Of a stretch of 64,000 bases of DNA, positions 2,558 to 39,495 are shown one piece after another; the stretch's first letter is position 1, and every line of letters begins with the position of its first letter. The notes beneath the pieces were generated by a model. The model had not been told where the DNA came from. It was given only the letters and a program-made list of their open reading frames with translations, and made no database searches. The DNA is from Betaproteobacteria bacterium. Its GTDB lineage: Bacteria; Pseudomonadota; Gammaproteobacteria; Burkholderiales; SG8-39. A program made the translations under genes and the position numbers. The stretch spans positions 21,611 through 85,610 of the forward strand of contig VBCA01000001.1 in the NCBI GenBank assembly GCA_005881575.1. Direction: 5' to 3'.

Positions 2558-3547
2558 CTAGCGGCGCCGCTTCGGCCAGGCTTCCGGATTCAGCAGATTG
2601 GGCGGACGTCTTCCCGACAGCGCAGCACTCAGGTTCTTGCTCGCGAGTAGGGCCATCGCCGTGCGCGTCGCGCGCGTGGCGCTGCCGATATGCGGAACAA
2701 GAGCGACGTTGTCCACCTCGAGAAACCCGGGGTTGAAATTCGGCTCGCCTTCGAACACGTCCAGGCCCGCCGCTGCGATGCGACGTTCCTTGAGCGCCTG
2801 GACGAGCGCCGCATCGTCGATGATCCCGCCGCGAGCGGCGTTGACGATCACCGCGGCCGGCTTCATCCGCGCGAGCTGCGCGGCGCCGATGAGATGGTGG
2901 ACTTGCGGCGAATACGGCATGTTGAGGCTGATGAAATCGGATTCCTTGAGGAGCCTCTCCATGTTCACGTACTTCGCGCCCAGCTGCTTTTCGACCGCCT
3001 TCGGCACGCGCCCGCGGTTATGGTAAAGGACGCGCATCGAGAACCCCTTCGCCCGCCGAGCGATCGCCTGGCCGATGCGGCCCATGCCGATGATGCCGAG
3101 CGTCGCGTGGTGCACGTCGACGCCGAGAAATTGGTCGTTCTTCCAACCCTTCCAGCTCCCGGCCCGAAGCCAGCGCTCGGCTTCGGTTACGCGCCGCGCA
3201 GCGGCCATGAGCAGCGCCCAGGTCATGTCCGCGGTCGTGTCGTCGAGTACACCCGGCGTATTGGTCGCGAGGATGCCTCGCTCGGTGCAGGCCGCGAGGT
3301 CGATGTTGTTGTAGCCGACCGCGATGTTGCACACGGCTTTCAGTCGCGGCGCCGCGGCGAGCGTCGCCGCGTCCACGCGGTCTGAGCCGGTGGGAAGGAC
3401 GCCGTCCTTGTCGGCAAGCCGGCGACAGAATTCCTCGGCGCTCCAGGGCGCATCTTCCTTCTGGTTGTCCTCGACTTCGAAGCGCTCGCGCAACTTGTCG
3501 ATGACGTCGTCGAAGGTCGCGCGCGTCACGAGAATCTTGGGTTTCAC
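2558..3547 (-). CDS. D-isomer-specific 2-hydroxyacid dehydrogenase (glyoxylate/hydroxypyruvate reductase-like)
   Basis: 329 aa. NAD-binding motif GIIGMGRIGQAIARRA and catalytic region PHIGSAT, as in the GhrB/TkrA family. Confidence 0.85.
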   Translation of the reverse strand: MKPKILVTRATFDDVIDKLRERFEVEDNQKEDAPWSAEEFCRRLADKDGVLPTGSDRVDAATLAAAPRLKAVCNIAVGYNNIDLAACTERGILATNTPGVLDDTTADMTWALLMAAARRVTEAERWLRAGSWKGWKNDQFLGVDVHHATLGIIGMGRIGQAIARRAKGFSMRVLYHNRGRVPKAVEKQLGAKYVNMERLLKESDFISLNMPYSPQVHHLIGAAQLARMKPAAVIVNAARGGIIDDAALVQALKERRIAAAGLDVFEGEPNFNPGFLEVDNVALVPHIGSATRATRTAMALLASKNLSAALSGRRPPNLLNPEAWPKRRR

Positions 3548-21253: not shown

Positions 21254-22377
21254 GATTTCTTCACCACTTCTCCGTTGATGCACACCAGGCTTCCCGCGAT
21301 GATCTCGTCTTCACGGTTCAACTTCAGTTCCCCGGTCTTGGGATCGACGAGCAAGTTCAGGAAATTGAGGAGATTCCGCGCGTAGAGCGCGCTCGCGTCC
21401 GCAGCGACCAGCGCCGGCAGGTTCGCGAGGCCGACGAGCTTCACGCCGTGCTTCACCACGATCTTGTCCTTTTCGGTCAGCGGGCAGTTGCCGCCCTGCT
21501 CGATCGCCATGTCGACGACGACCGAGCCCGGCTTCATGGCTTTGACCGTTTCCTCTCTCAAGAGGACGGGAGCAGGCCGGCCGGGAATGAGTGCGGTGGT
21601 GATGACGATGTCCGCGGCCTTGGCGCGCTCGTGCACGAGCTCCGCCTGGCGGCGCATCCAGTCGACCGGCATGGGCCGCGCGTAGCCGCCGACGCCTTGC
21701 GCGATCTCGCGCTCCTCGTTGGTGAGGTAGGGAACGTCGAGGAATTTCGCGCCGAGCGACTCGATCTGCTCCTTCACCGCCGGACGCACGTCGGACGCCT
21801 CGATCACCGCGCCCAGGCGCTTCGCCGTGGCGATCGCCTGCAGCCCCGCGACGCCCGCGCCGAGGACGAGCACGCGCGCCGCCTTCACCGTGCCGGCGGC
21901 GGTCATCAACATCGGCATGAAGCGGCCGTATTCGGCGGCGGCGAGGATCACCGCCTTGTAGCCGCCGATGTTCGCCTGCGAGGAGAGCACGTCCATGCCT
22001 TGAGCGCGCGTGGTGCGCGGCAGCCATTCCATGGCGAAGCAGGTGAGCCCCGCGGCTGCATAGGATTCCATGGTCGCGCGGTCGTAGGGATTGAGAAGCC
22101 CGATGAGGATCGCGCCGCGCTTGAAAAGGCCCACCTCCCCGTCCTGCGGACCGCGCACCTTGAGCACGATGTCTGCGATGGAAAGGTCTTTCGCCTCCGC
22201 GACGATTTTCGCGCCGGCCGCCTCGAAATCCCTGTCGGGAACGCTCGCGGCCACGCCCGCGCCGGACTGCACCAGGATCGCGTGGCGCCCGCCGGCGGCG
22301 AGCTTCTTGACGGTCTCGGGAGTGGCAGCGACGCGCGTCTCGCCCGCGCGGGTTTCCGCGGGTATGCCGATGTTCAT
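21250..22377 (-). CDS. pntAA: NAD(P) transhydrogenase subunit alpha part 1
   Basis: Trimmed to the ATG at 22377 ([26 protein letters not shown]...). Rossmann motif [22 protein letters not shown]. Confidence 0.9.
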
Positions 22378-22937: not shown

Positions 22938-22946
22938 GGCCAAGCC

Positions 22947-23588
22947 TCAACATTTGCCGATCGCAGTCAGCCTTCCGTCGTCCTCGATCTTGATCCTCAG
23001 CGCCCGCGTGAACAGCGCCGTGCCGACATAGGTGTCCACCGTGATGGTTATCTCCACGATTTCCTGCGTATCGAAGAATTTCTCGAACGCGGCGAAGGTC
23101 GCGTCGTCGACGTCGCCGCGGGCGGCCTGGTCGACGTAGGCCAGGAGCGCGCGTTGCCGGTCGTTGAACAGAGTGCTCGCACGCCAGTTGCCGACGGCCT
23201 CGATCTGCTGCGGCGTGTAGCCGCAGGCGCGCATCATCGGACGGTGCTGGTTCATTTCGTAATCGCCCTCCCAAAGCTGGGCCGTGCGCAGGATGGCAAG
23301 CTCCACCAGCGGACGCGGCGTCTTGGTGTCGAAGCGGATGGCGTAGGCCATGGCCGAAGCGGCCCTGGCGAGTTTCGGCGCGTTGCCCCGGACAAGGGCG
23401 AGGTTGATGACCTGACCGCCGCGGCTGCGCGCGTTGTCGAACATCGCCTTCAGATCCGGATCGGTGGAATTTTCCTGCGCCGCCGGCACGCGGGCGACCG
23501 GCCCTTCAGCGCGTGCGGGGATTGCGAACGCTGCCACGATCGTCACAAGAGCGGAAACCGGCAGCGACCGCTTAGTTGGTTTGTTCAT
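22947..23588 (-). CDS. carboxymuconolactone decarboxylase-family (AhpD-like) protein with signal peptide
   Basis: 213 aa with N-terminal signal MNKPTKRSLPVSALVTIVAAFAIPARA. The helical body resembles the AhpD/CMD fold (EGDYEMNQHRPMMRACG). Confidence 0.55.
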   Translation of the reverse strand: MNKPTKRSLPVSALVTIVAAFAIPARAEGPVARVPAAQENSTDPDLKAMFDNARSRGGQVINLALVRGNAPKLARAASAMAYAIRFDTKTPRPLVELAILRTAQLWEGDYEMNQHRPMMRACGYTPQQIEAVGNWRASTLFNDRQRALLAYVDQAARGDVDDATFAAFEKFFDTQEIVEITITVDTYVGTALFTRALRIKIEDDGRLTAIGKC

Positions 23589-23650
23589 CGCGTCATTCCT
23601 TTCTGCGCTTCGTGAAGAGACCGGGTAGTGGATAGCGTTTTATTGCGATT

Positions 23651-24541
23651 TTAGGTAGTCGCCACTAGCAGTTCCTCTGAATTGTTTGGCGGACGAAGGC
23701 CATCTGTCCTGCCCGCGAAGTAGCGTTGGGCAAGCGTAGCTGCCGATACGTGCTGGACATCTCTAAAGCCGGCATCGCGGGCGAGTGTCAGCATCTCCGT
23801 CGGTGTGAAGAAGCTGATGAAGGGCGTGCCGTTTGCTCGCGCCCCCGCTGCCGCTCGCTCAATCCCGGGACGCACCTCGGGGTCCGCCAGCTCGATCGGA
23901 AGCATGAACGACATGGCGAGCGTGGAGCCCGGAGCGAGCGCCGCGACCTGGCGCAGCGTCGCCGCGATCGCCTCCTTGGTCAAGTACATGCTGACACCGG
24001 TGGACGCGACGAGCGCCGGCCGCCCGGAATCGAAGCCCGACGCGACCAGCTGCTCCCACCACGCGTCGCCTGCCTCGAAGTCGACTGGCACGAGCCGCAG
24101 GAACGACGGGACGCCGAGGCCGAGGTCGACGAGGCGCTGGCGCTTCCACGCCTGAGGGCCGGGCCGATCGATCTCGAACACGAGCAGACGGGAGGCAAGC
24201 TCCGGCCGACGCTGGGCGAAGGTGTCCAGGCCCGCTCCGAGGATGACGTACTGCCCGACGCCACGCGCAGCTTGTTCCGCGACGAGATCTTCGATGAAGC
24301 GGGCGCGGGCCACGATGGAGGCGCGGAATGGCCGCGTGAACGGGCTCATGTCCGGACGGCTGCGCCATCCGTCGTCTGGAGCGGCCAGCTTCAAGCCGAC
24401 TTCGTCTTCGAGCACGTGCGGCGGCGAATCGACTTCAACGTGCAGCGCCCGCCACAAGGCGACCCGCACCGCCGTGTTGTCTGGCGCCGCCACTTGCTTA
24501 TCATGCATGACGGAATCCCTTAGGACTTCGCGGAGCTCCAT
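23651..24541 (-). CDS. class I SAM-dependent methyltransferase (TIGR00027-like O-methyltransferase family)
   Basis: 296 aa with the SAM motif QYVILGAGLDTFAQR and the downstream VFEIDRP, as in the mycobacterial-type putative O-methyltransferase family. Confidence 0.7.
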   Translation of the reverse strand: MELREVLRDSVMHDKQVAAPDNTAVRVALWRALHVEVDSPPHVLEDEVGLKLAAPDDGWRSRPDMSPFTRPFRASIVARARFIEDLVAEQAARGVGQYVILGAGLDTFAQRRPELASRLLVFEIDRPGPQAWKRQRLVDLGLGVPSFLRLVPVDFEAGDAWWEQLVASGFDSGRPALVASTGVSMYLTKEAIAATLRQVAALAPGSTLAMSFMLPIELADPEVRPGIERAAAGARANGTPFISFFTPTEMLTLARDAGFRDVQHVSAATLAQRYFAGRTDGLRPPNNSEELLVATT

Positions 24542-24608
24542 GACGCCGACCGCCGAGAAATCTCTTCATCACGAATAACGCCCTGCGCCTGGAAGTGCAG
24601 CAACCTCC

Positions 24609-25094
24609 TCAGCTCACCGCTTTCTTCACGAGCGCGCCGATCCTTGCCTCGTCGGCGGCGGTCAACTCCTTCAGCGCGAAGGCGACCGGCCACACTGTGT
24701 CCTCGTCGAGGTTCGCCTTGTCGCTGAACCCAAACGTCGCGTACCTCGCCTTGAACTTGTGCGCGCTTTGGAAGAAGCAGACGACATTGCCGTCCTTGGC
24801 GTACGCTGGCATCCCGTACCAGGTTCTCGGCGAGAGGGCTGGCGCGCTGGCATTGATGATGGCATGGACCCGCTCGGCCATGGCGCGATCCGGTTCCGGC
24901 ATCTCGGCAATCTTCGCGAGCACGTCGCTTTCCCCGTCCGCCTTCTCTGCGCGCGGGCCGCGGCGCGCTTCCGCCTTCAGCTCTTGGGCGCGCTCCTTCA
25001 TCGCGGCTCGTTCCTCGTCCGTGAATCCCTTGACCTTCTTGCCGGTCACGGTGGCGCTCTTGGCGGACTTCTGTGTATCCTTCTTTGGGCTCAT
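24609..25094 (-). CDS. DUF1801 (YdhG-like) domain protein
   Basis: 161 aa with a Lys/Glu-rich N-terminus followed by ...[32 protein letters not shown]..., which is typical of DUF1801. SD GGAGG lies upstream of the ATG. Confidence 0.6.
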
Positions 25095-25171
25095 AGAGCC
25101 TCCGCATACTGACTTTGGTTGGACACCTCGCCGCAGTGCGAATGCGGATCCGCGCTATTCTGACATGCGCC

Positions 25172-25262
25172 GCCTAACGTTCACGCCCACCAGCGCGCGC
25201 TTTCAGAGCCGGCGCAAAGCACGACGCTCGCGCGCGCGTCCGCGTTGGGCGTGCTGTTAGTC
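25172..25262 (-). repeat. attC-like recombination site 1 (91 bp)
   Basis: The minus strand reads GACTAAC-AGCACGCCCA...(GC-rich imperfect dyad)...TGGGCGTGAAC-GTTAGGC. This gives an RYYYAAC-like inverse core and a GTTRRRY core flanking an imperfect palindrome. It begins 7 nt after the stop of the 25270..25716 ORF. Confidence 0.5.
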
Positions 25263-25269
25263 CGCCGCA

Positions 25270-25716
25270 CTACGCCTCACGCTCGAATTCAATGATGCCC
25301 CTCGTTGTTCGGCTGGGATCAAACGGGCTGGGCGCCCACTTCGAGATGAACTGCAGCCTTGATCCCACGAAGCGGCAAGTGCGAACCTGCTCGGCGCCCG
25401 TCCATTCCACCAACGATGCCACATCCACATCGGTGACGAAATTATCGCCGTCGAACGTATATTTGCCGGAGTACGCGAACATCGACTTGAAGGCTCTTGC
25501 GCGGTCCGCTTCCGTATTCGCGGGTTGTCTGCCCTCGGCAGTCAAGATCACCATCATGTATCCGTCCGGCATGAGCATCAGGCGCCCTCTCGGTGATTTG
25601 CCAAACGTGGGCCATCGCTCCCCGGTCGCTTGGTCTTCGGCATCAAATGAGGCCAGACGCCAGGTGCCGATGATGGAGCTGTCACGGTTCTTGTGATTGT
25701 CACGTTCAGGGTTCAC
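25270..25716 (-). CDS. lipocalin-like domain protein (candidate gene cassette)
   Basis: Trimmed to the GTG at 25716, which is preceded by GAGGAGGAG. The sequence IIGTWRLASFDAED...GRLMLMPDGYMMVILTAEGR...YSGKYTFDGDNF matches the lipocalin-like (PF13924-type) pattern. GC is lower than the flanks. Confidence 0.55.
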   Translation of the reverse strand: MNPERDNHKNRDSSIIGTWRLASFDAEDQATGERWPTFGKSPRGRLMLMPDGYMMVILTAEGRQPANTEADRARAFKSMFAYSGKYTFDGDNFVTDVDVASLVEWTGAEQVRTCRFVGSRLQFISKWAPSPFDPSRTTRGIIEFEREA

Positions 25717-25778
25717 GATAAGCTCCTCCTCTCGTGCACTATTAGAATTTCGAATTGACGCTCGAGACCAATCTAGCG

Positions 25779-25848
25779 GACTAACGTTCACGGTAAGGGG
25801 CGGGCGCCAGCTTGCTGGCGACCGTCCCGCTCGACCGTGTGGTTAGAC
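25779..25848 (-). repeat. attC-like recombination site 2 (70 bp)
   Basis: The minus strand reads GTCTAAC-CACACGGT...CGCCAGCaagCTGGCG...ACCGTGAAC-GTTAGTC. It shares the 12-mer CTAACGTTCACG (plus strand) with site 1 and begins 7 nt after the stop of the 25856..26167 ORF. Confidence 0.5.
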
Positions 25849-25855
25849 GGCAACC

Positions 25856-26167
25856 TCATAGGTTTGCTCCAACGGAGCGTTGCGTCGACGGAGTATTTGA
25901 AACTAGGACAAGACGGAATTTCCCGAAGTCTTTTCCCAGAATCAGCTTCATCGGAATTATGGAAAGAGCGATGCCGATCGCGGCACCTATGGGAGCAGTA
26001 ACAAATTGAATTGTGGTTACCGGCACTCCGAGCATTCCCATCACAAACCCGAGAATGCCGCCCACTATGGCACCGATAACTACAGCAGCAATGAGCGCAA
26101 TGAGATTCCGCCAGAAGTATGCCCACCAAACCCGAATTACATTACCCCAGGTGATCTCCATTTCCAT
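25856..26167 (-). CDS. small hypothetical membrane protein (candidate gene cassette)
   Basis: 103 aa with two or three hydrophobic helices (LIALIAAVVIGAIVGGILGFVMGMLGV; APIGAAIGIALSIIPM). SD GGGAGG lies 6 nt upstream of the ATG. GC is about 50%, clearly below the surroundings. Confidence 0.5.
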   Translation of the reverse strand: MEMEITWGNVIRVWWAYFWRNLIALIAAVVIGAIVGGILGFVMGMLGVPVTTIQFVTAPIGAAIGIALSIIPMKLILGKDFGKFRLVLVSNTPSTQRSVGANL

Positions 26168-26193
26168 AGTGCCTCCCGTTTTTCTCTATTGCC

Positions 26194-26236
26194 GTCTAAC
26201 GTATAGTGAACTTCCGAAAAGTCTCCTATATTAGAC
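26194..26236 (-). repeat. short or degenerate attC-like site 3 (43 bp)
   Basis: The minus strand reads GTCTAAT-ATAGGAGACTTttcgGAAGTTCACTATAC-GTTAGAC. It folds as an imperfect hairpin with cores at both ends and lies 26 nt upstream of the 26167 start. It is shorter than typical attC sites. Confidence 0.3.
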
Positions 26237-26484
26237 ACCCGAACGCCCGCCCTTGCCATCCCTTCTAAGAATCAACGCGTTACGGTACTGTATGTACGTA
26301 TAGTCTTGTTGTTGCGATGCGGTTTCGTGCCAATCAACACAGGATAGGTGGCGCGGAGGGAATTAATGGCCGGTGAATCAAGGGGATTCTACGGACGGAT
26401 TCTACGGACGCGCGGGATGAAGGGAAGCGCCCCGGTCCGCGGCTGCTCCACGGGGTGCGGTGCCGCCGCTGCAATTGAGAGCCG

Positions 26485-36525: not shown

Positions 36526-36670
36526 TTTCCCTTCGATGATGCCGCTGGAAATGATCTGAACAACAAAGCGAAAGTCACGATGGGAGAATCCTATGGATTC
36601 CTTATCGTGTCACGGAACTGGCCCTATACCACTCACTTGGTACGTTGCCCGAACCGACTTACCACAAATT

Positions 36671-37981
36671 TTACTGACGAGGGTGTTTAAAGAAATGCTC
36701 TGCAATGGCCTTGGCAATGATGCCGTTTGCCAATTTATTATGGTGACCACTTTCCTCATAATACAGGCTAGCAAAGTCGCCAGGTTTCGGTTTCGCCATC
36801 GACTCAATTAAAACAGGTTCGGTATCAAGATAAGGTATTCCCCAACGTTCGATTTCTCTTATTAGGAATGCCTTTCGCCAGCCGCCGCCAGAAGTGGGGA
36901 CGAAGATTACGAAACGTAAATCGAGGCTGTTGGCGTTTGCCTCTTGCACGATTCCTTCAATTAGGCTTTTGCTAACCCGCTCTATTTCTCCTCGCCGATG
37001 CTCACTGTCCATTAAATTCCCACCCGTTTCTAGATACTCCGCAAACTGGACAAGGGCAGCTCCGAAATAGCTTGTTATTCCGACCGGATTTTTCTTGAGA
37101 TAGGAATCATTATTCGTTTCGACCGGGACGCCGCTTAGGACAAGCTCATTCTCTTTGATCAAGAAATATGGCTTGGGACGACTTCGATTTTTCATAATAC
37201 AGCGATCCAGGTCGACCGTAAGAATCCCAATAATGACCACAGGTTTCTTAAAATGGTCGTGAGATTGCTTAAATCGAAGATAGATTTGGTCCAAGCCATA
37301 ACCCGGTACACCGAAATTGTAGACTGTCTTACCCGGTAATAGGCTTTGCAATTGCTGAGGGATTTTATCCGCCATCAGCTTTCCAGCTCCAACAAAGGAA
37401 TCACCGTAAAACAATACACTCCCTTCCGTCGCTTCCAAAACATAAGGGGTATCGGCAATTACACCCAAGGGGTTCTGAGGGGTCCTTTTGTAAGCCCACC
37501 CCAAAATAGGATCGTACGCTAGCCCTGAACTGCTTCTTTGGAATTCGTTGAGATCGGCACTTTCGGCCATTTCCTTATCGATATTATCTAATCCCCATAC
37601 GATTCGAAGTTTGTAGTAATCGTCATCGGAAAGTACATTCGCATATAACCCAGGAGTACGAAACTTAGGGTGCCCAATGGCTATGCCGGTTCGAAGCGTG
37701 ATTTCCATTAACAGGGGACTCATTATGACAATACTAACAAGAAGGAGATTAAGATTCGCGACCAGATCCGTTCTCCGGTAGGTAATAGTGGTAAGCCCCC
37801 AACAGACCAGGATGAAAACAACGCTCCCCATCACAATTAGAACCAGTTCTCTATGCCTTGGAGAGATAGGTCCCAGTTGGTAAAGCAAAAAGTTTCTCAC
37901 AGGCAAAAATGCAACTGCGCCTCCCACAATCCATGTGACACCAATCAAAATGAGGACCTTTTCTCGGATACTTGTCTTCAT
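36671..37981 (-). CDS. membrane-anchored SGNH/GDSL-like hydrolase or acyltransferase (hypothetical)
   Basis: 436 aa with 3-4 N-terminal TM helices. Block I-like FYGDSFVGAG, block II-like NFGVPGYG and block V-like EESGHHNKLANGIIAKAI are present. AT-rich codon usage. Confidence 0.5.
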   Translation of the reverse strand: MKTSIREKVLILIGVTWIVGGAVAFLPVRNFLLYQLGPISPRHRELVLIVMGSVVFILVCWGLTTITYRRTDLVANLNLLLVSIVIMSPLLMEITLRTGIAIGHPKFRTPGLYANVLSDDDYYKLRIVWGLDNIDKEMAESADLNEFQRSSSGLAYDPILGWAYKRTPQNPLGVIADTPYVLEATEGSVLFYGDSFVGAGKLMADKIPQQLQSLLPGKTVYNFGVPGYGLDQIYLRFKQSHDHFKKPVVIIGILTVDLDRCIMKNRSRPKPYFLIKENELVLSGVPVETNNDSYLKKNPVGITSYFGAALVQFAEYLETGGNLMDSEHRRGEIERVSKSLIEGIVQEANANSLDLRFVIFVPTSGGGWRKAFLIREIERWGIPYLDTEPVLIESMAKPKPGDFASLYYEESGHHNKLANGIIAKAIAEHFFKHPRQ

Positions 37982-37990
37982 AAAACCACT

Positions 37991-39211
37991 TCAATTCCTT
38001 GAAAACACTTCAGGCAATTCTTTTATTAGAATTTCTGCAACAATCTTATTCCCCGACGGATTAAGGTGTCCATCGTGACTCCAATACAGATCCCTCAGGC
38101 GCAAATGACTCTCGCGAAAATGAAATGTTAGATCGATAAACCTAATGCCATCATGAGTGAGAAACTCTCGTAACTGTTCGTAGTATTTCGCGTCGGAATA
38201 CACCGTTTTGAAAGGCATAAGCACCATTACGAAGGGAATGTTATTCTCAGTTGCGAACTTCTTGAAGGCTAGGACTGCTTTCTTATTCTTAATCGCTTTT
38301 GGGTTATTACCATACCAATACTGTCCATTGCTGTCCATGTGGTCTCTATACTGTCCATTCGAGTCTTTATCGACAAAATACAAATTCCTAACCGAGGGCT
38401 TTTCGGCTGAAGCCGTCTCAGTCGAATCCGTCTTTTCTACCAACGATTTCACTAGATGTGCTGACAGCGAATATTGTCTGAGGAAATATTTGACTCTTTG
38501 CGACCATGTCCGTCCTTCCAGACTACGTCCTCGCAGACTAAGATCGAGTAACCTTTTATCAATGAATCTTCTTAATTCTATTTCCGGAATCTTCACACGC
38601 CTATCATCTTTATCAAGGCCTACATTATCCACTAGCCAACCATCCATTACAGTAGAATGAGGATAGGCATAGTCATTTGCAATATCATTCGCACAATAAA
38701 AAACAATTATCGCCTTAGGCAAAATTCCAATTTGTTCTACTATCTCAACGAATTTGTCGTATTGGTGTTGCTGGCCTGTATGTGTTACCCCGCATTTTAG
38801 TATTTGAGTGCCGGTCAAATTCTCGATTACAGTGCCAAATTTTTCATCGAAAGGTGCATACCCCCACGTATAACTGTCTCCCGTTAAATAAACATATTCT
38901 TCGTATTGAGCATGCTCTTTATCAAAGCAGCCTATTGAGTTCGACCAAATCGGATAAGTGATGCCATTTACCCAGTGATAGCCCTTTTTGTTTTTGCCAT
39001 TATCAAATCCTCTTTTTTCATGTTTTACAAAATAGCCTTTGGAAAAAGGACCTTGGATCCCAATATCCGGCGCAAGTGTGTCGCGTTGAAAATCCTCACG
39101 ATATTCATTGAAGTTAAGCGCATACTCATTAGGCAAGAAGAAGAACGTTATGACATCGAAAAATATGATGGTTAACAATACAAGTAAAAGAGTTAATAGG
39201 ATTTTCATCAT
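37991..39211 (-). CDS. membrane-anchored SGNH/GDSL-like hydrolase or acyltransferase (hypothetical)
   Basis: 406 aa with a single N-terminal TM (ILLTLLLVLLTIIFFDVITFFF). Block I LTGDSYTWGY, block III-like FYCANDIAND and block V-like WSHDGHLNPSGNKIVAEIL are present. The stop lies 9 nt before the next ORF's ATG. Confidence 0.55.
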   Translation of the reverse strand: MMKILLTLLLVLLTIIFFDVITFFFLPNEYALNFNEYREDFQRDTLAPDIGIQGPFSKGYFVKHEKRGFDNGKNKKGYHWVNGITYPIWSNSIGCFDKEHAQYEEYVYLTGDSYTWGYAPFDEKFGTVIENLTGTQILKCGVTHTGQQHQYDKFVEIVEQIGILPKAIIVFYCANDIANDYAYPHSTVMDGWLVDNVGLDKDDRRVKIPEIELRRFIDKRLLDLSLRGRSLEGRTWSQRVKYFLRQYSLSAHLVKSLVEKTDSTETASAEKPSVRNLYFVDKDSNGQYRDHMDSNGQYWYGNNPKAIKNKKAVLAFKKFATENNIPFVMVLMPFKTVYSDAKYYEQLREFLTHDGIRFIDLTFHFRESHLRLRDLYWSHDGHLNPSGNKIVAEILIKELPEVFSRN

Positions 39212-39495
39212 TTCTAGACGATCGGCGGTTTAAATCGTTTGTACAAACTAAAGCGGGATTTGAGTGATGGGAAAATCAATTTGGCTGTTGCCGGCGTCCC
39301 CTGCGGCTGAAACCTTGTAGCGCCGCCTGAGCGGTGCACCCGCACTCGGTTGCGCTCGATCCAGGTTGCCGGCGCGCGTTCGGCGGTCGGATCGACGCTC
39401 CCTGGGCGCTGCGTAACGGGCGTTGCGGCAAATCATGCAGTCGCCGGGCGCAGCAAGTCAAGCGCAGAGGCGCTCGCCTCGGAAAATCAATCGCA

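Follow-up and report, generated by a model that had tools for sequence, protein, structure and literature searches.

The integron integrase IntI is a tyrosine recombinase that recombines the folded bottom strand of attC sites at G|TT, and recombination at this point assigns the final six bases of each R′ box to the cassette that follows. Clusters of attC sites lacking an integron integrase (CALINs) are recognized as two or more attC sites that share a strand and are spaced by less than 4 kb (Cury et al., 2016, PMC4889954; Néron et al., 2022, PMC9024848). A survey of 21,105 complete genomes counted 2961 of them, 1362 with two cassettes only (Loot et al., 10.1101/2022.09.11.507474), and the candidate origins published for them include loss of intI and rearrangement (Cury et al., PMC4889954) as well as insertion at secondary or ‘attG’ sites (Loot et al., 10.1101/2022.09.11.507474). 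Here, we describe an array of this kind in a 64,000-nt stretch of DNA (hereafter, the window, to whose own numbering all positions refer) from an uncultured soil member of the Burkholderiales (Betaproteobacteria; assembly GCA_005881575.1, contig VBCA01000001.1, forward-strand positions 21,611–85,610). An original prediction, made from the sequence alone, had proposed that a small CALIN-like array without an integrase lies here, and our analysis indicates that three integron cassettes, arranged head to tail on the minus strand, very probably form a chromosomal cluster here, in a window that holds no integrase.

Compared with described systems, the array is an ordinary small CALIN, a known and common kind of element. 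It carries no fewer than two attC sites on a single strand within 4 kb (sites B and C, 516 bp apart, both on the minus strand) and no intI within 4 kb. As in published CALINs (PMC4889954; PMC9024848), small, co-oriented, promoterless open reading frames (ORFs) lie between the attC sites, no intI or intI pseudogene is found nearby, the cassettes carry genes other than resistance genes, and the array is small, as most CALINs are. It departs from them, in ways that are not essential, in that one of the three cassettes has no attC site and the upstream boundary is marked only by an R-box repeat (site A). IntegronFinder would probably report two attC sites here, because the attC site of cassette 3 has been lost and site A is only an R-box repeat. 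With single attC sites lacking an integrase (SALINs), that is, cassettes inserted into the genome by attC × attG recombination (Loot et al., 10.1101/2022.09.11.507474), the locus shares a position outside an integron platform and behind a host operon able to drive expression, as well as a left junction other than an attC site; it differs in having three cassettes rather than one, and insertion at a genomic site is here only a candidate.

Along the minus strand, the original prediction had listed three attC-like sites, here called A (26194–26236, 43 bp), B (25779–25848, 70 bp), and C (25172–25262, 91 bp), and re-reading of that strand showed its coordinates, site strings, ORFs, 7-nt stop spacing, and cassette lengths of 415 and 607 bp to be correct throughout. 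Site A is an AT-rich inverted repeat running from GTCTAAT to GTTAGAC, site B extends from the R″ box GTCTAAC to the R′ box GTTAGTC, and site C, which is less canonical than B, extends from GACTAAC to GTTAGGC. In both cases in which an ORF precedes an attC candidate (25856–26167 ahead of B and 25270–25716 ahead of C), the R″ heptamer begins exactly 7 nt after the stop codon. The sequence CGTGAACGTTAG occurs solely at sites B and C in the window, with 0.17 chance matches expected.

An attC site was defined as a 40–200 nt element with a significant covariance-model match (sequence plus R- and L-box pairing), and the models, which are home-made and stand in for the attC_4.cm model of IntegronFinder, were built solely from sites outside the window. 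Model R1 comprises 19 class 1 attC sites from ten plasmid integrons, located via the 5′-conserved segment and belonging to cassettes that include aadA1, aadB, blaVIM-2, dfrA1, blaGES, aac(6′)-Ib, blaOXA-1, catB3, and arr-3; the sites were aligned, the R-box and L-box pairs were encoded, and searches were run with filters off. When R1 was applied to 80 metagenome loci encoding IntI1 or its relatives, down to 67% identity, it returned 107 matches, every one of them in the position expected for cassettes, upstream of intI on the strand opposite to it. Model R2 was then built from these 107 intI-adjacent sites.

On both strands of the window, R1 gives a single significant match, which is site B with exactly its predicted ends (25.8 bits, rough E ~8e-4), with C at 7.5 bits and A at 5.4 bits. 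With R2, sites B (36.4 bits, rough E ~3e-6) and C (22.4 bits, rough E ~5e-3) are the top two matches of the window, both matched over their full length on the ORF strand, the ends being those originally proposed; the third-best match reaches 12.5 bits, 10 bits below C. Opposite-strand scores under R2 are 4.7 bits for B and 8.2 bits for C, and site A scores 6.1 bits. Across 1.06 Mb of related Burkholderiales loci, R2 finds no match at E ≤ 10. Rfam has no match at sites A, B, or C even at E ≤ 10, and gave no test of the sites. Hence two of the three sites predicted to be attC-like are significant with models that are independent of the window (C with R2 only), while site A is an R-box inverted repeat that marks a real 5′ boundary, that of cassette 1, and by the models is not an attC site.

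In the R2 alignments, B and C have spacers of 5 nt and 6 nt, respectively, and both carry a bulged C at the consensus column of the L″ arm, which would correspond to an extrahelical G on the bottom strand. Three of the spacer bases of B can also pair, and its spacer may therefore be shorter. The bottom-strand folds, which the original prediction had named as a check, were compared with those of shuffled sequences as single-stranded DNA; B folds clearly better than the shuffles (z = −4.7), and C (z = −1.6) and A (z = −2.1) only weakly so. The closest sibling of B is an attC site (L173:2297–2387; fetched loci are numbered with the prefix L) adjoining an intI whose product is 76% identical to IntI1. 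Site B also shares its layout and much of its sequence (..CTAACC....TCGAG.GGGACG...GCCCCT.A....AAACGTTAG) with class 1 and betaproteobacterial attC sites such as those of aac(6′)-Ib and blaOXA-1; in contrast to class 1 integrons, the cassette contents here are unrelated to resistance genes. Judged from sequence, the model matches, the R and L boxes, the spacers, and the putative extrahelical base support the assignment of B and C as attC sites.

The core heptamers point in the same direction. The R″ box of B (GTCTAAC) exactly complements the R′ box of A (GTTAGAC), as the R″ box of C (GACTAAC) does the R′ box of B (GTTAGTC). At both B and C, R″ matches the preceding R′ in 4/4 positions and its own R′, in the form found in the array, in 3/4, with one mismatch each. 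Consecutive sites in intI-adjacent arrays behave in the same way as a control: among 51 informative pairs, the preceding R′ is the better match in 45, R″ is perfectly matched by the preceding R′ in 41, and it is perfectly matched by its own R′ in none. GACTAAC and GTTAGTC had been noted as each deviating at one position from RYYYAAC/GTTRRRY, which is true of the consensus; being exact complements of the boxes of neighboring sites, however, they are the cassette signature that the array form predicts, diagnostic features and not imperfections.

Two of the three cassettes (1 and 3) recur in other soil DNA, with homology that breaks at the core sites. Cassette 1 (25785–26199, 415 bp when cut at G|TT) consists of TTAGAC, the ORF at 25856–26167, and site B up to its G. 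Through the closest relatives of the 103-aa protein encoded by this ORF, we reached two loci (L225 and L226) in which the cassette is present at 95.7–96.0% nucleotide identity over window positions 26202–25781, with unrelated DNA on both sides. The shared segment begins at ...AC|GTTAGACGGCAATAG, where the GTTAGAC of site A lies (26202, just upstream of the R′ box of A), and extends to ...GTGAACGTTAG, at the GAACGTTAG of site B; in these loci, the next unit starts with TTAGGC and encodes an unrelated 160-aa protein. The attC site of this copy scores 41.8 bits with R2, and, as in the window, a non-attC junction precedes the cassette in L225. A 79% copy of cassette 1 is found among other attC matches, that is, in another attC array (L227).

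Cassette 3 (24580–25177) consists of TTAGGC, an 83-nt leader, an ORF encoding a 161-aa DUF1801/YdhG-like protein (24609–25094; Pfam DUF1801 at 24.8 bits, just under the curated cut-off of 27.2), and a 29-nt tail. The DUF1801 gene had been described as following the last site with no recognizable attC site of its own and as belonging to the resident block, and R2 indeed finds no attC match downstream of it in the window. In another soil population (L216), however, the unit is present at 95% identity over window positions 25176–24580 (leader 95.1%, ORF 95.1%, tail 93.1%, versus 48% and 33% just outside), with its 5′ breakpoint a single base within the G|TT of site C, and runs on, 8 nt later, into an attC site of 35.6 bits. 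Because the L216 copy continues into an attC site whose R″ box, GCCTAAC, is the exact complement of the TTAGGC in the window, the DUF1801 gene is a third cassette whose attC site has been deleted in the window. The deletion breakpoint (...CAGGGC|GTTATTCG, at 24580/24579) lies 8 nt before the expected R″ box, and a comparable 72-nt deletion has removed the 5′ half of the attC site of the same cassette in a sister allele (L215).

Protein clusters with 88–96% identity to the DUF1801 protein, which is of the ‘iron chaperone’ (YdhG-like) type, number at least 120, the named ones being from Bryobacteraceae, other Acidobacteria, and Gemmatimonadales, and the ORF is ∼92% identical at the DNA level in metagenome-assembled genomes (MAGs) of Bryobacteraceae and Gemmatimonadales. 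Searches of the cassette proteins against the 80 integron loci (tblastn) found none of them there. In L215–L224, the DUF1801 cassette is found amid several attC matches (e.g., at 207–308, 3024–3121, and 4861–4962 of L216), the alleles differing in the 72-nt attC deletion and in the presence or absence of an upstream 152-aa ORF; no IntI-like sequence was found in the fetched 2.5-kb flanks of these loci. One Bryobacteraceae (Acidobacteriota) MAG carries two copies (L209, 4001–4486 and 6885–7295), both with ∼92–94% DNA identity to the window, one of full length without an attC site and the other 5′-truncated and followed by an attC site with the R″ box GCCTAAC. At both places where the DUF1801 homology is lost before the expected attC site, the new sequence starts with GTT (window 24579–24573, ...CAGGGC|GTTATTC; copy 1 of L209 at ∼4510, ...CAGGC|GTTGCGT), which may be due to chance or may be a trace of imprecise, integrase-mediated deletion.

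The original prediction had stated that neither intI nor attI is present in the window. When 11 integron integrases were searched against the 64 kb by tblastn, no IntI was found (best E = 0.46), which leaves at least 24 kb free of an integrase on each side of the array; no intI pseudogene was found in the window, and no IntI was found when IntI proteins were searched against all non-integron loci that we fetched. As for attI, the leader and site A show no similarity to the intI-adjacent regions of the 80 integron loci, and the window holds no complete integron, that is, no intI, attI, and cassette promoter (Pc) beside the first cassette.

The cassette boundaries expected at G|TT appear as breakpoints in L225/L226 and L216, and among conspecific contigs we found no presence/absence polymorphism of cassettes. 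One structural variant was seen (L012, 9627–9938; MAG GCA_009772005.1), in which attC site B is 312 bp long, its center and 3′ arm being replaced by 276 nt that include an element of ∼216 bp with 23-bp terminal inverted repeats (TCATCCGATAATGTGGACACATC). This allele of B still scores 20.7 bits as an attC site, and no further copy of the terminal repeat came up in the window or the fetched loci. Among the variable positions of the 2-kb region in the conspecific contigs, 66 of 86 fall within the DUF1801 ORF, at 24685–25037, including an 18-nt deletion allele, and the remainder of the region is nearly clonal. Replacement of the cassette was ruled out as the source of the divergent DUF1801 alleles, since the divergent tract begins inside the ORF and not at G|TT; because near-identical DUF1801 copies occur in many soil taxa, the variation likely stems from recombination with foreign alleles or from chimeric metagenome assembly.

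Might the palindromes instead be a generic repeat family of this genome, of the repetitive extragenic palindromic (REP/BIME) or terminator type, that mimics attC cores and has no link to integrons? Like REP/BIME palindromes, B and C are GC-rich, imperfect hairpins located just after stop codons, and the fold of C is little better than chance. Unlike such repeats, they are not dispersed (no further copies similar to B or C occur in the 64-kb window or in the 1.06 Mb of related genomes), their scores are strongly strand specific under a model trained on integron attC sites alone, they are bounded by RYYYAAC/GTTRRRY heptamers whose junctions carry the partner-swap signature described above, and they and the upstream ORF travel together, the breakpoints lying at G|TT. 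Moreover, no T-tract terminators were found. We consider this explanation to be extremely improbable.

Several observations do weigh against reading the locus as an integron cassette array. Under the narrow class 1 model R1, site C scores poorly, and its fold is marginally better than those of shuffled sequences, site A fails both attC models so that the left end of the array is non-canonical, and it should be noted that the models are home-made and their E-values rough. All ∼25 conspecific contigs (97.7–99.9% identical) carry the same array, and no current cassette turnover is seen at this locus. Within the limits of the searches, no other context came up for cassette 2. Finally, the genomic settings of distant homologues of the 103-aa membrane protein (in Desulfobulbus, on a low-GC contig, in an ATP-synthase operon, and others) do not resemble those of cassettes; these homologues were set aside as evidence for cassettes, the close copies alone being informative. 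Against these stand the ranking of B and C as the top two attC-model matches of the window, the partner-swap junctions, and the recurrence of two cassettes with breakpoints at core sites, and the integrase-less array that was originally proposed is, in our view, well borne out.

The remaining features of the array are as follows. A non-coding leader (26237–26484, minus strand, 59% GC) extends from the stop codon of an OpuAC/permease gene to site A, and holds a perfect tandem pair of the 13-mer CGTCCGTAGAATC at 26385–26410 that has no other occurrence in the window. The 103-aa product of cassette 1 is a small hydrophobic (membrane) protein that belongs to no Pfam family. Cassette 2 (25178–25784, 607 bp, with bounds taken from the sites) consists of TTAGTC, a GTG-initiated ORF (25270–25716) encoding a 148-aa protein of the Lipocalin_5 family (PF13924, by Pfam), and site C up to its G. 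As had been predicted, the ORFs have their own Shine-Dalgarno motifs (GGGAGG, GAGGAGGAG, and GCGGAGG ahead of the three ORFs) and the GC content is 0.49–0.59 over 25250–26450 versus 0.65–0.70 in the flanks. Cassettes 1 and 2 (53% and 59% GC) lie below the flanking genes; the lowered GC content does not extend to the DUF1801 gene of cassette 3, at 64%.

With regard to the host, exact-protein matches to the window were found in another MAG (GCA_005881935.1) and in many grassland-soil metagenome contigs, and the flanking OpuAC/permease protein, when compared with species-representative genomes, matches solely Burkholderiales/Betaproteobacteria MAGs (top identity 92%), in which the gene order is GlcF, ABC ATPase, OpuAC-permease, and then cupin/pntA. 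The DNA 3′ of the OpuAC-permease gene differs among these relatives and represents a variable spot with different cargo in each species. In L025 (9447–9464), nothing is inserted, and the stop codons of the OpuAC-permease gene and of the next core gene are 12 nt apart. In L019 (6613–7608), a glyoxalase gene and small ORFs lie between OpuAC-permease and cupin/pntA, and other genes occupy the junction in L021 (6290–10811) and L023 (9425–10633); no attC match was found with R2 in the cargo at any of these four junctions. Since this region varies among relatives, window positions 22938–26484, which are missing in L025 and contain the CMD, LCM, and DUF1801 genes, the lipocalin and membrane-protein genes, and the 248-nt leader, can be regarded as extra DNA at a variable spot. 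Elsewhere in the window, which has 64.5% GC overall, a 43% GC island at 36600–39250 looks like separately acquired foreign DNA; its minus-strand ORFs are 36671–37981 (436 aa, no Pfam match) and 37991–39211 (406 aa, weak match to GDSL/SGNH hydrolases).

How the cassettes would be maintained and expressed can be sketched as follows. Each cassette would once have been a circle that was inserted by an integron integrase, and with no intI nearby, the array would now be static and fixed in its population. Sites B and C still resemble recombination substrates, and excision of the lipocalin cassette by an IntI acting in trans would be possible. The cassette genes are probably transcribed by read-through from the co-oriented ABC-transporter operon directly upstream. 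This is the likeliest mode of expression, given that the search of the cassette strand (minus strand, from the ABC-transporter genes to LCM) revealed neither promoter-like nor terminator-like sites.

The array may have reached the locus by insertion into the genome at a non-attI site, through loss of an intI once present there, or as a transferred array fragment. The position of the array directly behind the stop codon of the operon and its non-attC left junction favor genomic insertion, in which an IntI supplied from another part of the genome or by a visiting plasmid placed the cassettes directly at a secondary or ‘attG’ site behind the ABC operon, no integron ever having been present at the locus. 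The absence of intI or a remnant of it within at least 24 kb on either side fits this scenario, as does the relative in which the next core gene follows the conserved stop codon 12 nt later, right where the array starts in the window. In L225, too, cassette 1 follows a non-attC junction, and the route has been described experimentally; of 2961 CALINs, 1362 have two cassettes only (10.1101/2022.09.11.507474). Three different consecutive cassettes would nevertheless require repeated insertions or a pre-assembled fragment, site A retains an R″-like half (GTCTAAT) that is not needed at an arbitrary genomic site, and the LCM and CMD genes, which lack attC sites, are also extra relative to L025 and point to a more complex insertion history. 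We regard direct insertion as a plausible origin, to which we would give somewhat less than even odds.

The R″-like half in site A and the eroded state of the attC sites favor instead the decay of an older array, in which the locus is a remnant or a translocated fragment of a longer array whose integrase was lost or separated and whose attC sites are eroding by internal deletions. The attC site of cassette 3 has been lost, with its breakpoint 8 nt before the expected R″ box, the 5′ half of the same site has been deleted in parallel in L215 (72 nt), site A resembles an R box with its center missing, and, in the L012 allele, B holds a large insert; loss of intI and rearrangement are, in addition, among the origins of CALINs proposed by Cury et al. 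(PMC4889954). Weighing on the other side, there is no intI pseudogene in the window, no insertion sequence or transposase is seen among the annotated neighbors, and sister species have no integron at the locus. Decay from a longer array is an origin to which we would give a chance approaching one-half.

A broader and more tentative scenario is that of recent cassette traffic between phyla in grassland soil, in which an integrase acting in trans plants cassettes at non-attI chromosomal sites behind active operons, where fixation follows and internal deletions remove the attC sites. The basis for this reading is the DUF1801 gene, at ∼92% nucleotide identity to copies in Bryobacteraceae and Gemmatimonadales MAGs and at 95%, leader included, to the attC-bearing copy in L216; as a whole, the scenario is possible although unlikely.

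That a genuine integron cassette array can be recognized at all by reading the raw sequence is one outcome of this analysis. The array documents a CALIN in an uncultured soil member of the Burkholderiales; its specific value is modest, and what is known of integrons is unchanged. It is nonetheless a clean case, in that cassette boundaries, the decay of attC sites, and the re-use of cassettes in other genomes are visible together. Of the by-products, the DUF1801 cassette stands out most: its copies in different soil phyla are nearly identical, and it seems to be unusually widespread among them. If the scenario of recent traffic between phyla is true, small CALINs would be a route by which integron cargo is turned into ordinary chromosomal genes.

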